This document shows, piece after piece, positions 2,859-38,557 of a stretch of 46,671 bases of DNA. The stretch lies in the NCBI GenBank assembly GCA_030877765.1, contig GCA_030877765.1_4853.1; one strand, given 5' to 3'. Under the pieces are notes generated by a model. That model was not told where the DNA came from and searched no databases. It saw nothing but the letters and a program-made list of their open reading frames with translations. Both the position numbers and the translations under genes were made by a program. Numbering within the stretch: position 1 is the first letter of the stretch; each line of letters opens with the position of its first letter. This DNA comes from a phage.

Positions 2859-3803
2859 TTATAAATTAAACTGTTTTTTGAACCATTCAGGCGTTTCCAT
2901 TTCTATGACAGGATTACCCATTGAATAACCGGGCCACGAATTGGCTTTTTTGCACGCCTTGTAAATTTCCATAGCGCCATGCAACTGAATTCGACCGATG
3001 CGTAATTGCTCTTCAGTCAAGCGAATTAACGCAGGAATAAATGGTGCTTTCTTTTCCTGAACGAGAAGATTAACAGAGCGTGGCGCATGACCATATGCCG
3101 CAACAAACATGTCGTGCTGCATCGCCATTTTCATAAAGTACCCAAGTCTCGCAGCATGACGGAAAAACTCTTCTGGCTTGGCGCTCACCGCTGTTTTGTA
3201 GTCGATGATGTCGCCACCTTTGGTAAGGCAGTCAAAGCGAACTTTTGCCTTCTCTCCGTTAAGTTCACCTAGAATTGACACTTCAGCATAAGCACCAGCG
3301 AGAAGACTGCTGTAATAGCTGTTTGCGTGGATTACAGCACGCATTTGCTGAATAGCGTCATAATCACCACCTTCCAGCATTTGCTTTCCTACAGCAGCTT
3401 TTTCAGCCTCTTCACGGATGACATCGTAAATTTTCACTGGCTCGCCAGTCGCCTGGATGATTTTGATCACCTCAGCTTTCGACTTTCCTGAAAGTCCTTT
3501 GATGCCTCGTTCTTTTGCCCATGAGTTCATATCACTTACAGTAACAAGCAGGTCATCACCAAAATCTTCTTTGGTTGGCATTCGTGCATATTCAGCATCA
3601 AAACGCTCTGGTTCAAGCAACGCAGTATGGCTACCTGTACCGAATATAAGAGCTTTTGATTGCTCATCCTCTTCGTCTTTGTATCGCCATGCTGCCGGGC
3701 ATCTGTCAAGTATATTCCATAATCCAGAACCATTAATGTGCTCTGTGTCAGCATGATAATCCTGATTGCTTAATTCATTGTTGAAATAAACTCTCATCAT
3801 CAC
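2859..3803 (-). CDS. PD-(D/E)XK family nuclease (RecB/Cas4-like exonuclease)
   Basis: GGDIIDYKT motif with downstream acidic residues; same operon as ATPase and SSB as in phage recombination modules. Confidence 0.65.
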   Translation of the reverse strand: MMMRVYFNNELSNQDYHADTEHINGSGLWNILDRCPAAWRYKDEEDEQSKALIFGTGSHTALLEPERFDAEYARMPTKEDFGDDLLVTVSDMNSWAKERGIKGLSGKSKAEVIKIIQATGEPVKIYDVIREEAEKAAVGKQMLEGGDYDAIQQMRAVIHANSYYSSLLAGAYAEVSILGELNGEKAKVRFDCLTKGGDIIDYKTAVSAKPEEFFRHAARLGYFMKMAMQHDMFVAAYGHAPRSVNLLVQEKKAPFIPALIRLTEEQLRIGRIQLHGAMEIYKACKKANSWPGYSMGNPVIEMETPEWFKKQFNL

Positions 3804-35824: not shown

Positions 35825-36222
35825 TGCCAGCGAAATTAAGAGGCGTCCGACAGGCCGTAGAGAGAACATCGCAGATTGTGGATGAGATAATCGCCACGAA
35901 AGCTGTGCGTGCAATTAAGTCAGCGACATACATCATCCGCACCGAATCAGCCACGCTAACGCCAATTGATACATCAACGCTAATTAACAGTCAGTTTGAT
36001 ACCGTGGAAGTTAGCGGAACGCGAATCACTGGCAAGGTTGGCTACTCTGCAAAATATGCACTGTACGTCCACAATGCCAGCGGTAAACTTGCAGGGAAAC
36101 CGCGCAGCAACGGCAACGGCACGTATTGGTCGCCGGGTGGTGAACCACAATTCCTGACCAAAGCAGCGCAACGCACAAAAGACCTTGTTGATAGCGTGAT
36201 TAAGAAGGAGATGACACTCTAA
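35824..36222 (+). CDS. Putative tail completion protein
   Basis: 132 aa; position and size. Confidence 0.45.
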   Translation: MPAKLRGVRQAVERTSQIVDEIIATKAVRAIKSATYIIRTESATLTPIDTSTLINSQFDTVEVSGTRITGKVGYSAKYALYVHNASGKLAGKPRSNGNGTYWSPGGEPQFLTKAAQRTKDLVDSVIKKEMTL

Positions 36223-36596
36223 TGAATATGCTTGAACTGGTTGATGCATATCTTCAGGATGCAGGATTGTACGATGGCTGGACTTCGCAGCTGCAGTTCT
36301 GGAATGACACCGGAGATGGAAGTGAGCAATTTATTGTTCTGCAATCCAACGGTGGCACTCAGGTTATGGATGGCCTCGGCGGTGACTTCTATTTTTCGCT
36401 GTATGTTGTTGGCAAACAAGGCCAATACAATGTTGCTGATGTTGATTCGAAGGCCAATGAGATTATCGAATACATCAAAACACACCCGATTGATTCATGC
36501 GTTAACTACATCCAGTTGCAAGCGCCACTTGGCAGGGCAATGCTGACGGAAGAAAAAAGACCAGTGCATGAACTGCTATTACGTGTTGTGAAATAA
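36222..36596 (+). CDS. Putative tail terminator protein
   Basis: 124 aa; immediately before the major tail region. Confidence 0.45.
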   Translation: MNMLELVDAYLQDAGLYDGWTSQLQFWNDTGDGSEQFIVLQSNGGTQVMDGLGGDFYFSLYVVGKQGQYNVADVDSKANEIIEYIKTHPIDSCVNYIQLQAPLGRAMLTEEKRPVHELLLRVVK

Positions 36597-36597
36597 A

Positions 36598-36624
36598 TAA
36601 AGCCGCATGAAGCGGCTTTTAATT
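36598..36624. terminator. Bidirectional terminator
   Basis: Stem agccgc/gcggct with 5-nt loop; T-runs on both strands. Confidence 0.75.
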
Positions 36625-36701
36625 TGGTGGACACGGACGGATTTGAACCTTCAATCAGCCGATTATTAGTCGGTTGCTTTAACCAATTAAGCTACGCGTC
36701 C
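36625..36701 (-). tRNA. tRNA-like gene (77 nt including encoded CCA); apparent anticodon AAU
   Basis: Minus strand folds by eye: 7-bp acceptor stem with one G-U, D-arm GCTT/AAGC, anticodon stem-loop with loop CTAATAA, T-loop GGTTCAAATCC, discriminator A plus CCA. One mismatch each in anticodon and T stems. Confidence 0.55.
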
Positions 36702-37199
36702 ATAAGTGCTGGTTTAAGCATTGCCAGCGTGCTTTCTTAACATCCAGCCCCGTAACCCATACATACCCCTACATATGATTGCGATAATGCTGGATATTAA
36801 GTGTTGTGGTGGCCGGTGCTGATCTCCGGCATAAGGCGCTTATTCGGCGGCGTCGAGCTTGCTTATTCGCTTGAGCCATCCTCGTGAGTCAGCCACGTCC
36901 CACTGCGCATCAGCCTGCGCATTCACCACAACGGAAAGAGCACTGATGCGCTCACTTGGGACTCCTTAGCCATAACCCACGGGCTTCTGGTACACCAATG
37001 CTCTTACCTGTTGTGTTCCCTGACTTATTAATCACACCTCAGGGACGCAGTGCGCCGAATTTGTTTACAAGGAATCGGAAGACCTTGCTGACTTACAGGC
37101 TATTACGCCGCCATCAGAACAACATCATCGTTTGCATTTATCTTTGTGGTCAGTTTCTAAAAAGTCCGCAAAGTCGCTCACGAAAACTATCTGAAATAC

Positions 37200-37243
37200 A
37201 ATCTACACCACAAAATAATCGCTGTCAACACCTGTGATATAAT
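37200..37243. promoter_or_regulatory. Divergent promoter pair: leftward into the non-coding locus, rightward for the major tail gene
   Basis: Minus strand TTGACA (37228-37223), 17 bp, TAGATT (37205-37200); plus strand extended -10 TGaTATAAT (37235-37243). Confidence 0.6.
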
Positions 37244-37279
37244 CACCACGTTAGCAGCTAACACAATTCGGAGATCGAA

Positions 37280-37999
37280 ATGGCTATTTGTGCAAATGAT
37301 AAAGGCGTTCTGGTCGGTCGCATGACCCGACTGTTCCTTGCTGAAGGGTGCGGCGACGCAGTTCCGGATGCAGGCGACTGGAAGTATTTAGGCTCAACCA
37401 CCAGTAAAGGCGTTGACTACTCGCCGCAGACCACTACGTCGGAAGCGGATACCGCTGGCGGCTTTGTTTCTACTCTCGTTACCAGCTCTGATATGACCAT
37501 CAGTGCAGAGGTAGAAATCCGCAAGAATGACCCGAGCGATGAGTTTGGCTTCCATCGTCTTGTTGAGATTTACACCACTGAACTGAAGGCTCGCCGCCAG
37601 CCTTCCTTGTGGGTGCGTCAGGTGACTGGTGCAACTATCGTTACCGCGTATTGCAACATCACCAGCATCAGCTACGAAGGTGGCACGAACGATATCGTTA
37701 CTGGTAGCCTTGAGTTTAAGGTTTACGATTCTGACAGCGTTACCGTAGAAAGCCTTGAACCTCTGGCATTCACTACCGACCTGCAATCAACTGGCACGGC
37801 CGGAATCCCGTTAACCGTTGCTGTTGAAGGTGGCGTTGATCCTTACACTTATGTATGGCGCAAAGATGGCGCAGTTGTTGATGGTGAGTCTGGCGCATCT
37901 CTGGCAAGCCCTACCGCTGGCGTGCATACCGTCACGGTAACTGATTCATCTACCGACCCGGAAATTATCATCAGCACGGCGTGCACGGTATCCCGATAA
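37280..37999 (+). CDS. Major tail protein with C-terminal Ig-like domain
   Basis: 239 aa, GGAG RBS; Thr/Val-rich Ig-like C-terminus as in lambda V; followed by a strong terminator. Confidence 0.7.
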   Translation: MAICANDKGVLVGRMTRLFLAEGCGDAVPDAGDWKYLGSTTSKGVDYSPQTTTSEADTAGGFVSTLVTSSDMTISAEVEIRKNDPSDEFGFHRLVEIYTTELKARRQPSLWVRQVTGATIVTAYCNITSISYEGGTNDIVTGSLEFKVYDSDSVTVESLEPLAFTTDLQSTGTAGIPLTVAVEGGVDPYTYVWRKDGAVVDGESGASLASPTAGVHTVTVTDSSTDPEIIISTACTVSR

Positions 38000-38004
38000 A
38001 GAAA

Positions 38005-38030
38005 AGCCCCGAAAGGGGCTTTGTTTTATT
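38005..38030. terminator. Bidirectional terminator
   Basis: Stem agcccc/ggggct with gaaa loop, TTGTTTTATT. Confidence 0.8.
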
Positions 38031-38226
38031 CTTGTGGTGGTTCTGGCGGATTGGCCCAGTGGGTAGCTGGAATTCCGTGACAGCAGTCCAATTCACTAAC
38101 AAATATCTTGCTGCCAATATTATCGACAGCTTTACATACCGCAGTTCTAACAACACCGCGAAATGCTGTAAGAACCATCGTTCCTTCTTCTGGCATTCGC
38201 TCACTACACTTAATCCACTGGCTCAT
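38026..38226 (-). CDS. DUF551-like protein
   Basis: MSQWIKCSERMPEEGTMVL matches the DUF551 N-terminal signature. Confidence 0.55.
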   Translation of the reverse strand: MSQWIKCSERMPEEGTMVLTAFRGVVRTAVCKAVDNIGSKIFVSELDCCHGIPATHWANPPEPPQE

Positions 38227-38366
38227 ATCACCTTGTCCTCATCAAAAATCACGCCAATAACGCGAAGTAAGTCTTTCGCCATGCGTTCCGCTTCCTCGTA
38301 GTCGTAACCTGCATCAACATACAAATCAGTGTAGAAAATCAGGTCAGCTTTTGTTTGTTCGTTCAT
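38223..38366 (-). CDS. Small acidic protein (47 aa)
   Basis: ATGA overlaps at both ends with the Imm-like and DUF551-like genes. Confidence 0.3.
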   Translation of the reverse strand: MNEQTKADLIFYTDLYVDAGYDYEEAERMAKDLLRVIGVIFDEDKVI

Positions 38367-38557
38367 TTCTTGTCGCCACTGTTAACTAATGCCCAAACAA
38401 GTGCCGCAACCCATCCAATAAAGCTCCACCCGACAAGAATATTCAGTACACAGATTGCTGTCGTGTTTGTGTGCTTGCGTTGCAAAGCCACAAATGATGG
38501 AAGAAGATAAACAAATATAACCAATCCAGCAAAAAGCAACAAAATAACAACATCCAT
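38363..38557 (-). CDS. Superinfection immunity (Imm-like) small membrane protein
   Basis: Two TM helices; LPSFVALQRKHTN...LNILVGWSFIGWVAALVWAL matches the Imm superinfection-immunity family pattern. Confidence 0.6.
   Translation of the reverse strand: MDVVILLLFAGLVIFVYLLPSFVALQRKHTNTTAICVLNILVGWSFIGWVAALVWALVNSGDKK

Follow-up and report, generated by a model that had tools for sequence, protein, structure and literature searches.

Trans-translation, a drug target, occurs in all bacteria, and some phages depend on it. The tag of the Escherichia coli transfer-messenger RNA (tmRNA, SsrA) is ANDENYALAA, and nucleotides U85 and A86 are functionally important in the context at which translation resumes. 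A census by Hudson, Lau and Williams (2014; PMC4131195) placed phage tmRNAs only in mycobacteriophages and Bacillus phage G, and mycobacteriophage DS6A was described as carrying an RNA made of the tRNA-like domain only (PMC4131195). The locus considered here is the minus strand of a gap at positions 36,598-37,279 of a 46,671-nucleotide (nt) phage contig (GCA_030877765.1_4853.1, assembly GCA_030877765.1), which as a whole is called the window. Our proposal, held tentatively, is that the gap encodes a non-coding RNA of ~390-490 nt, made from its own promoter in one transcript with a tRNA, which serves as a tmRNA "template cassette" without a tRNA domain and makes use of the host tmRNA, to which its 5′ arm is complementary.

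Central to this proposal is a frame of ten codons that starts at a GCA (37135-37133), ends at two stops (37105-37103 and 37102-37100) and resembles the tag template of tmRNA (Table 1). A permissive Rfam scan of the window gave weak matches to the permuted and beta-proteobacterial tmRNA models, centred on AUAAAUGCAAACGAUGAUGUUGUUCUGAUGGCGGCGUAAUAG, and related loci gave similar weak tmRNA matches, including one to RF00023 limited to model positions 51-311 of 374. Two exact-pattern scans of viral contigs, one with the resume region and one with an unrelated hairpin-loop motif (GGTGTGATTAATAA) of the downstream pseudoknot b, collected ~90 family members with 75 distinct sequences. The loop motif brought ~40 further members independently of the tag region, and even in members found this way AUAAAUGCAAACGA is nearly invariant. 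All 59 aligned members (59/59) have exactly ten sense codons followed by a stop. Their tags occur in 29 nucleotide versions that encode 18 peptides, with synonymous variants of identical peptides; all four bases occur at the third position of the final alanine codon, and the remaining two frames are not constant in length.

The context of the frame is equally conserved. A single-stranded linker of 10-18 nt (12 nt in the window) joins the arm to the resume codon, and the sequence AUAAAU within it, followed by GCA AAC GA, is nearly invariant; it places A, U and A at positions −6, −5 and −4, like A84, U85 and A86 of E. coli ssrA. Family tags such as ANDNTFLAVA, ANEEMYLAVA, ANDEQFLAVA and ANDDLMMVAA (P1-type) keep the AND(D/E) start of the host tag and replace its C-terminal ALAA with L(M/A)(A/V)A, a change that may alter recognition by ClpX, ClpA or SspB. 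Because the frame is strict, varies synonymously and is accompanied by covarying helices, the family is built like the mRNA-like half of a tmRNA, with a tag frame apparently selected as translated. The sequence AUAAAUGCAAACGA also occurs in many IMG/VR viral contigs with true circularly permuted tmRNA genes (ARAGORN "tmRNA*"; L016, L021, L026, L029, L030, L042, L044, L059, L085, L086, L098, L103, L110, L112, L113, L118 and others, L numbers being handles of loci in this study), whose tags include ANDNFA..LAA, ANDSVYALAA and ANDEKFALAA.

A helix resembling helix 5 (H5) encloses the 3′ end of the tag and its stops. In its outer stem 97% of alignment cells are paired, and each of the four pairs shows double changes, A-U and G-C being found in 29 sequences each; the inner stem was identified only by eye. 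Two H-type pseudoknots follow, here named a and b and not equated with PK2 and PK3 of tmRNA. The stems of pseudoknot a are 98.6% and 96.6% paired, with compensatory changes in 7 of 9 pairs, while pseudoknot b has a conserved loop (GAUUAAUAA) and both of its stems are supported in the covariation count. Jointly, the H5-like helix and the two pseudoknots have 95.8% of cells paired and 18 of 22 pairs with changes on both sides; none of 500 shuffles reaches the observed values, and slid controls give 34-45% pairing. The original prediction for this locus had proposed a search for conservation and covariation in relatives, and both structural conservation and covariation were found. It had also proposed folding the RNA, which alone was uninformative: a single-sequence fold of the 392-nt RNA is no more stable than shuffles (z −1.2), so that the structure is visible only by comparative analysis. 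The 9-bp inverted repeat that it had highlighted near 36925-36970 (GCGCATCAG/CTGATGCGC) is real and lies slightly off that position, at 36943-36951 and 36905-36913; it is not a conserved structure, and only its 3′ arm belongs to a conserved hairpin (36920-36905).

Further downstream, helix B is present in nearly all members in many compensatory versions, with a tip of 5 to >350 nt. Several prophage versions carry an extra copy of its 3′ strand (GUGCUCUUUCC) directly upstream of the arm. The tip in L019 (~1167+200) contains CUGACGAG...CGAAAC...GUC between GCGCGC stems and resembles a hammerhead ribozyme core; this candidate was set aside, as it had no Rfam match at E <0.1. Compensatory variants also occur in the 3′ modules, in L019 (GUUGUGCUG/CAGCACAAC) and L033 (GCGUA/UACGU), and the sequence GUUGUG is claimed by two alternative pairings, one in helix B and one in the 3′-module helix. 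The 3′ modules share short words with the 3′ part of ssrA. These words and the 3′ anatomy, including a T-arm-like hairpin and a CACCA, suggest descent from a complete tmRNA.

The same alignment bears on the idea that the gap instead encodes small proteins, such as a 93-amino-acid TTG-start open reading frame (ORF) on the plus strand (36956-37237), which the original prediction did not list and which appears as hypothetical in some relatives. The Bas80 record annotates two coding sequences on the plus strand of the gap, and the ORF has one protein-family match, a weak one to phrog_26260 (46 amino acids, function unknown). A Pfam search with it matched no family, its start is a TTG, and the alignment displays 1-2-nt indels and base-pair covariation, not codon conservation on the plus strand, in a region that most records leave unannotated. 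With no Pfam match and only the weak phrog_26260 match, the protein-coding reading was rejected as scarcely credible, and phrog_26260 was probably assembled from spurious ORF calls on the conserved RNA locus. Antisense ORFs at the locus include L002 2064-2429 (minus strand), and several GenBank records carry "hypothetical proteins" there.

No tRNA-like domain was found in the element by ARAGORN (window and ~250 loci), by Rfam at either gathering or E-value thresholds or by visual inspection, nor was any acceptor stem, G3:U70 pair or usable CCA end. All Rfam tmRNA models score below their gathering thresholds: RF00023 11-15 bits (threshold 47), RF04321 27-34 (47), RF01850 18-21 (84) and RF01849 21 (50). 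In the window and in Mijalis-type phages the promoter puts the 5′ end of the RNA at a conserved box (RGUUUUCG), and an RNA that starts at the arm has no room for a 5′ acceptor strand. What lies upstream of the arm is a promoter, a terminator or a plain hairpin, with no acceptor piece ending in CCA. There is also no pseudoknot 1 (PK1) 5′ of the tag, the H5-like helix and two pseudoknots being downstream. The strings CCGGCCACCA and GGGGCUGGAU were considered as tRNA-like ends and rejected as strands of internal helices, one of which covaries; the tempting CCA and GGGGCUG motifs likewise lie inside internal helices. Searches of nine related loci with GOLLD, ROOL and other curated Rfam models returned nothing at E <0.1 except tRNAs and weak tmRNA matches. 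As judged from sequence, the family is not a tmRNA, because it lacks the tRNA-like domain.

A phage RNA could still be a self-sufficient, unusual tmRNA if its acceptor part came from another phage RNA, either a separate piece or the neighbouring tRNA, in the style of two-piece tmRNAs. The tmRNA-like tag frame and pseudoknots, the position in tRNA clusters, the T-arm-like hairpin and CACCA at 36830-36807, and odd tRNA-like fragments near the element in Citrobacter phage Mijalis (L006 676-760) and Salmonella phage Det7 would fit such an arrangement. It is nevertheless improbable: besides the missing acceptor stem, G3:U70 and usable CCA and the lack of space at the 5′ end, the CACCA sits within a covarying internal helix, the neighbouring RNA differs or is absent between phages, every Rfam score is sub-threshold, and ARAGORN made no call save one. 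That call, a permuted tmRNA in Mijalis, was discarded as a composite in which the tag is combined with an unrelated tRNA-like 3′ half and a piece of tRNA-Lys.

In the tRNA-Asp/tRNA-Lys gap of Mijalis (L006 ~676-760), a T-arm, an acceptor 3′ strand and GCCA come first, and after a further 4 nt there is the 5′ acceptor strand that matches (GAAGGGU), with a hairpin like a D-arm; the arrangement looks like a circularly permuted tRNA-like gene; it is the 3′ half of this sequence that the stitched ARAGORN call uses. The tRNA coordinates annotated for Mijalis (KY654690.2) are ~57 nt off the ARAGORN, Rfam and sequence positions. A stretch of ~67 nt in Det7 (L003 ~960-1030) is tRNA-like: it has an acceptor stem (GGUGAGG/CCUCGCC, with U3-G70), a D-arm and a canonical T-arm, together with a shortened anticodon region and no CCA, and receives no ARAGORN or Rfam call. 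It is an insertion relative to other Ackermannviridae and lies directly upstream of the element's promoter.

No pairing partner for the conserved 5′ box recurs across subfamilies within the RNA itself, and for this reason the host tmRNA was tested as its target, with E. coli ssrA (L247 194-556) as reference. In local alignment the arm matches ssrA best in opposite orientation (plus/minus), over ssrA nt 68-106. The arm of the window forms a duplex of ~37 base pairs (bp) with ssrA at −43.3 kcal/mol (RNAduplex), compared with −27.4 ± 2.7 for dinucleotide shuffles, none of 150 being as good. Its target, ssrA ~57-106, comprises the 3′ part of PK1, the linker, the GUC-GCA resume site and tag codons 1-6. 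The core of the target is the single-stranded stretch of tmRNA between PK1 and helix 5; long arms also invade PK1. In a cofold of the full-length RNAs the duplex is kept, with a free-energy gain of −12.7 kcal/mol (−2.9 to −10.4 for shuffled arms). The arm itself has no conserved internal structure.

The complementarity extends to relatives. For 47 of 48 distinct arms the best duplex falls on the 5′ part of ssrA (nt 38-130, with starts at 38-80), the exception being the arm of Aeromonas phage pAh6-C (L050), and nearly all duplexes end at nt 105-108 (130 for the Det7 type). Long arms start at ssrA nt 49-56 and short arms (Mijalis-type, L180) at 76-80; the latter go no further than nt 79/80, where PK1 has its 3′ edge. 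For the Faunus arm the first paired nucleotide is 38 with E. coli ssrA and 79 with Pantoea ssrA. Against whole ssrA, z scores are −5.8 to −7.4 for long arms of the window, L019 and EC1-UPM types, −4.2 for Det7 and −3.4 for P1. Against ssrA 78-108 alone, ten diverged arm types form 16-26 bp with z of −3.9 to −5.8 (0-2 of 500 shuffles as good). Diverged arms pair through partly different nucleotides, and their variable positions sit in internal loops. Over all arm subfamilies the pairing with ssrA 57/79-107 amounts to 16-37 bp and surpasses that of shuffles. From nt 68 onward the target is the same in one Pantoea and another enterobacterial ssrA, save for 1-2 changes just 5′ of the linker, and Pantoea ssrA, found through its SmpB neighbours, equals that of E. 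coli in nt 79-108. The pairing of the arm with SsrA is probably genuine. The arm is predicted to be specific for the host sequence rather than for its own tag, since the phage tag lacks GACGAAAAC.

The combination of arm and template suggests a stepwise mechanism. A unit delimited by promoter, terminator and downstream tRNA, all seen in the sequence, would yield the RNA, with release by RNase P. Its arm is computed to pair with host SsrA over the resume codon, tag codons 1-6 and the 3′ half of PK1. Just 3′ of the arm, conservation and covariation point to a linker, a resume context, the ten-codon frame, the H5-like helix, two pseudoknots and a long helix. The phage RNA would dock on the host tmRNA so that the duplex masks the host template, and the phage linker would leave the duplex where the host linker leaves PK1 (native spacing, 11 nt). 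Host Ala-tmRNA with SmpB would then enter the stalled ribosome, translation would resume on the phage template, and the tag added would be (A)ANDDVVLMAA in place of (A)ANDENYALAA. The gain to the phage could be a changed fate of tagged proteins or an altered ClpXP/SspB load. Phage RNA thus quite possibly substitutes for the template of the host tmRNA, and the result might well be an inter-genomic "two-piece tmRNA", in which the phage sets the tag and the host tRNA-like domain, SmpB, alanyl-tRNA synthetase and EF-Tu do the work.

The same complementarity evidence is shared by another explanation, in which the RNA is purely an anti-tmRNA antisense RNA, an inhibitor or sponge whose arm either covers the SsrA template or exposes the long duplex to RNase III cleavage, and thereby puts an end to tagging or to trans-translation altogether. 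A duplex of ~37 bp is a plausible RNase III substrate, a tRNA-like domain is indeed missing, and no unprecedented trans-template step is required. We regard this explanation as rather unlikely, and the same doubt attaches to its corollary that the tmRNA-like part is an untranslated scaffold, a decoy for SmpB/S1 or an evolutionary leftover. It leaves unexplained the strict ten-codon frame with synonymous variation and an in-frame stop in 59/59 members, the near-invariant resume context, the conserved 10-18-nt linker emerging at the position of PK1, and the maintained H5-like helix and pseudoknots. Antisense inhibition is the chief rival, an unlikely one, accounting for the arm and not for the frame, resume context or linker.

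Several points weigh against template substitution and the pairing on which it depends. The transcript, the duplex and the phage-encoded tag are computational inferences, and the model needs a ribosome to load a template tethered by base pairing alone. The host target is essentially invariant in the hosts examined, and no variation informative for phage-host covariation was found; a variant host pattern predicted from the Faunus and pAh6-C arms (YAGMSGCAAACGACGAAAAC) gave only 5 chance matches in a scan of genome contigs. RNAduplex backgrounds are high, and short arms are not significant against whole ssrA (z ~−1.4). The net cofold gain is modest, and the energies leave out PK1 opening and SmpB/S1 binding. 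When 5426 E. coli genomes (28 Gb) were searched by BLAST with the arm or with the 5′ module (module A), ssrA was never among the results, the similarity being too fragmented for a search of that size. The complementarity could also be a relic of an inverted ssrA duplication. Some phages have a hairpin, not a promoter, 5′ of the arm. Finally, phage tags are still degron-like (hydrophobic, with ...AA or ...VA ends), which clouds the benefit of exchanging them.

The unit lies in a T1-like siphophage whose locus is 99.9% identical to that of Escherichia phage vB_Eco_ZCEC08 and 99.7% to those of HC6 and 6947. The original prediction saw in the minus strand a dedicated non-coding RNA unit with a promoter pointing into it, and its outline is borne out. 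The ~680-bp gap in the tail module lies between a plus-strand head-tail ORF (36222-36596) and the major tail protein gene (37280-37999); as had been read, no minus-strand ORF inside it exceeds about 36 codons, the longest having 36 amino acids (36769-36879), and one of 42 amino acids overlaps the tRNA and terminator. The near-consensus leftward promoter is present and matches the consensus at 10 of 12 positions. It is one of two sites in the 1.1 kb scanned on both strands (36400-37500), the other being on the plus strand with 9/12; shuffled sequence has a mean of 1.5 sites. Promoter spacing would put the transcription start at ~37193/37192, and Mijalis-type relatives have TTGACA-17-TATAGT at the equivalent position. 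A terminator-like hairpin was also found where it had been claimed, after the tRNA. Promoter, ~680-bp ORF-poor stretch, tRNA and terminator thus read as one minus-strand unit. Just beyond the plus-strand major tail gene, a minus-strand cluster of three short ORFs (66, 47 and 64 amino acids) occupies 38026-38557; among the counterparts of these ORFs in the near-identical relatives L001 and L002 is a gene that bears the annotation superinfection immunity protein. Two leftward "moron" units, this cluster and the RNA/tRNA unit, thus interrupt the tail module.

Table 1. Features of the minus-strand unit in 5′ to 3′ order (window positions)
Feature	Position	Strand	Sequence, pairing or basis
Sigma-70-type promoter	37228-37200	-	-35 TTGACA 37228-37223, 17-nt spacer, -10 TAGATT 37205-37200
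5′ antisense arm against host tmRNA (SsrA)	37189-37148	-	local alignment, RNAduplex, cofold
Arm segment UAGUUUUCGU	37189-37180	-	pairs ssrA 97-106
Arm segment GCGACU	37177-37172	-	pairs ssrA 86-91
Arm segment UUGCGG	37171-37166	-	pairs ssrA 75-80
Arm segment CUUUUUA	37164-37158	-	pairs ssrA 68-74
Arm segment GA	37157-37156	-	pairs ssrA 65-66
Arm segment CUGACC	37153-37148	-	pairs ssrA 57-62
Single-stranded linker between arm and resume codon	37147-37136	-	ACAAAGAUAAAU; conserved columns, 59-sequence alignment
Tag frame	37135-37100	-	GCA AAC GAT GAT GTT GTT CTG ATG GCG GCG TAA TAG = ANDDVVLMAA, two stops; alignment
H5-like helix over tag 3′ end and stops	37117-37088	-	outer CUGA 37117-37114/UCAG 37091-37088; inner GGC 37112-37110/GCC 37100-37098
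Pseudoknot a (H-type)	37087-37055	-	S1 CAAGG 37087-37083/CCUUG 37072-37068; S2 CCGA 37078-37075/UCGG 37058-37055
Pseudoknot b (H-type)	37054-37018	-	S1 CGCAC 37054-37050/GUGUG 37037-37033; S2 CCCUGA 37044-37039/UCAGGG 37023-37018
Helix B, ~19 bp	37015-36996 with 36945-36927	-	variable 50-nt tip 36995-36946
Long-range helix of 3′ modules (whole 36932-36802)	36932-36924 with 36811-36803	-	GUUGUGGUG/CACCACAAC
Conserved hairpin	36920-36905	-	GCGCA-GGCUGA-UGCGC
T-arm-like hairpin, then CACCA (3′ module)	36830-36812	-	GCCGG-AGAUCAGCA-CCGGC
Distal module	36801-36702	-	hairpin 36801-36789 with 36748-36736; possible small pseudoknot 36735-36705; occurs alone in other phages
tRNA gene, encoded CCA, anticodon AAU	36701-36625	-	ARAGORN; Rfam tRNA model RF00005
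Intrinsic-terminator-like hairpin, then T-rich tail	36619-36599	-	AAAGCCGC-TTCAT-GCGGCTTT; sequence and fold

What the original prediction called a tRNA-like element at the 3′ end is present, as an ordinary full tRNA gene: ARAGORN calls tRNA-Ile(aat), and RF00005 scores 62.1 bits (threshold 29) with a full cloverleaf. An Rfam scan had been recommended, and at gathering thresholds only this tRNA passes in the window. A single C34-to-A change separates it from the CAU tRNA of Bas80, STGO-35-1 and swi2, which has the same sequence elsewhere, and gives it an anticodon that is essentially unused in bacteria; its T stem has an A51/G63 mismatch. The same tRNA-Ile is annotated in ZCEC08, HC6, 6947 and HC8A, and the ZCEC08 genome paper gives for the region only "one tRNA (AAT, Ile)" and nothing else. 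Cutting by RNase P at the 5′ end of the tRNA would free the upstream RNA.

The original prediction had suggested that the RNA is possibly a precursor from which the tRNA-like 3′ end is processed, and in its strongest form the upstream RNA would mainly drive or process the tRNA, with no function of its own. A single promoter and a single terminator do enclose both, and phage tRNAs are commonly made from long precursors. The upstream RNA is, however, independent of the identity of the tRNA: the adjoining tRNA varies by phage (tRNA-Met-like, Arg, Asn or none, with no fixed partner), the element also occurs within lambdoid late operons, and it has its own covariation and coding-type constraints. 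A role as mere leader is thus very improbable, and the ~490 nt upstream of the tRNA are better described, on the comparative evidence, as an autonomous, mosaic, structured RNA family.

A sensitive BLAST search of phage records with 36702-37200 gave matches in 644 records. Module A (~190 nt, window ~37190-37000) is 70-87% identical across unrelated phage families, with carriers that are Drexlerviridae-like, Ackermannviridae (Det7), Schitoviridae (EC1-UPM), Ounavirinae (Mijalis), lambdoid (HK633) and P1-like (RCS47), as well as Erwinia phage Faunus and pAh6-C. The gap that holds the element is unannotated in every case; usually it adjoins tRNA genes or falls within a group of them, and in lambdoid prophages it lies between Q/pR′ and the holin gene, inside late operons. 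Module A is also found in 656 of 5426 complete E. coli genomes (~12%), where it is never annotated; among the matches listed, 150 are chromosomal places and 554 lie on plasmids of ~80-140 kb, which are taken to be P1-like phage-plasmids. The locus is mosaic. Its segment 36925-36810 is 91% identical to Pseudomonas phage vB_Pae_CF213a, Pseudomonas phages having the 3′ modules only, without arm and template; segment 36820-36702 (query 381/392-499) has 97-99% identity in Salmonella phages seszw, INT55 and S.Kent, without the arm and template module. In pAh6-C a copy of the direct repeat CTCTATGGTATGTTTA stands at either side of the element (L050 ~3170-3440), as though a cassette had been inserted.

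Such mosaicism, together with the T-arm-like hairpin and the short words common to the 3′ part of ssrA, would also be expected if a tmRNA gene had once been captured and survived only as a functionless pseudogene in decay or as a selfish mosaic remnant. Against this stand the retention of the element in hundreds of phages of unrelated families with compensatory changes and an intact frame, and the complementarity maintained in diverged arms; decay is accordingly given very little credence.

At a minimum, this is a conserved, structured and unannotated RNA family in the tRNA clusters and late-operon leaders of hundreds of phages, which accounts for long "empty" gaps in well-studied phage genomes and flags a PHROG family of spurious ORFs. 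If docking of the phage RNA on host tmRNA is true, the tRNA-like and mRNA-like functions of tmRNA can be divided over two genomes, the tag of host protein quality control is edited by phages from widely differing families, and arm, linker and template form a compact natural design for re-coding tmRNA tags. Reprogramming in trans would then have spread by horizontal transfer among six or more phage lineages, and ~12% of sequenced E. coli would carry it on P1-like plasmids and in lambdoid prophages. We know of no natural RNA that targets tmRNA or feeds it a template in trans. Full-text literature on these phages yielded no tmRNA-like or anti-tmRNA RNA and no tag peptides, in a search that did not extend to one early preprint version naming both tmRNA and Drexlerviridae. 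The family is apparently undescribed and would be a new kind of element, its functional steps all being computed, because the tRNA-like domain that defines tmRNA is absent and a template is joined to an anti-tmRNA arm.

Among large RNAs, GOLLD and ROOL are similar in being modular phage or prophage RNAs beside tRNA genes with variable inserted domains; they occur in other hosts, the present family has no Rfam match, and neither has a tag frame or antisense arm. AgvB and AsxR of enterohaemorrhagic E. coli prophages are short Hfq-dependent small RNAs that titrate other small RNAs, some of them in the lambdoid late leader region. Like these sponges, the present RNA is phage-borne with extended complementarity to a regulatory or stable host RNA; unlike them, it has 400-500 nt, is predicted to target tmRNA and carries an apparently translatable template. 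The phage tmRNAs and the DS6A RNA are likewise phage genes that interfere with or supplement host trans-translation, DS6A carrying one half of a tmRNA. They are, however, full tmRNAs or the opposite half; none was reported in enterobacterial phages and none has an antisense arm (PMC4131195).

The tmRNAs themselves also offer a comparison. With one-piece tmRNA (SsrA, RF00023) the family shares A, U and A at −6 to −4 before a GCA resume codon, a ten-residue AND(D/E)-type tag with a hydrophobic and alanine end followed by stops, a helix around the 3′ end of the tag, downstream pseudoknots and a location among tRNA genes. It differs in lacking an acceptor stem, a T-arm with CCA, a D-loop and PK1, so that it could neither accept alanine nor act as a tRNA mimic in binding EF-Tu/SmpB; its region 5′ of the template is antisense to host tmRNA, and its Rfam scores are 11-34 bits against thresholds of 47-84. 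Two-piece tmRNAs of alpha- and beta-proteobacteria and cyanobacteria (RF01849, RF01850, RF04321) similarly split the function over two base-paired RNAs, and many permuted tmRNAs in viral contigs have the identical resume sequence. Both pieces of a two-piece tmRNA come from one gene and rebuild the tRNA-like domain, whereas here the second piece would be the complete tmRNA of the host, paired with the phage RNA through its template and not through acceptor or P2 strands.

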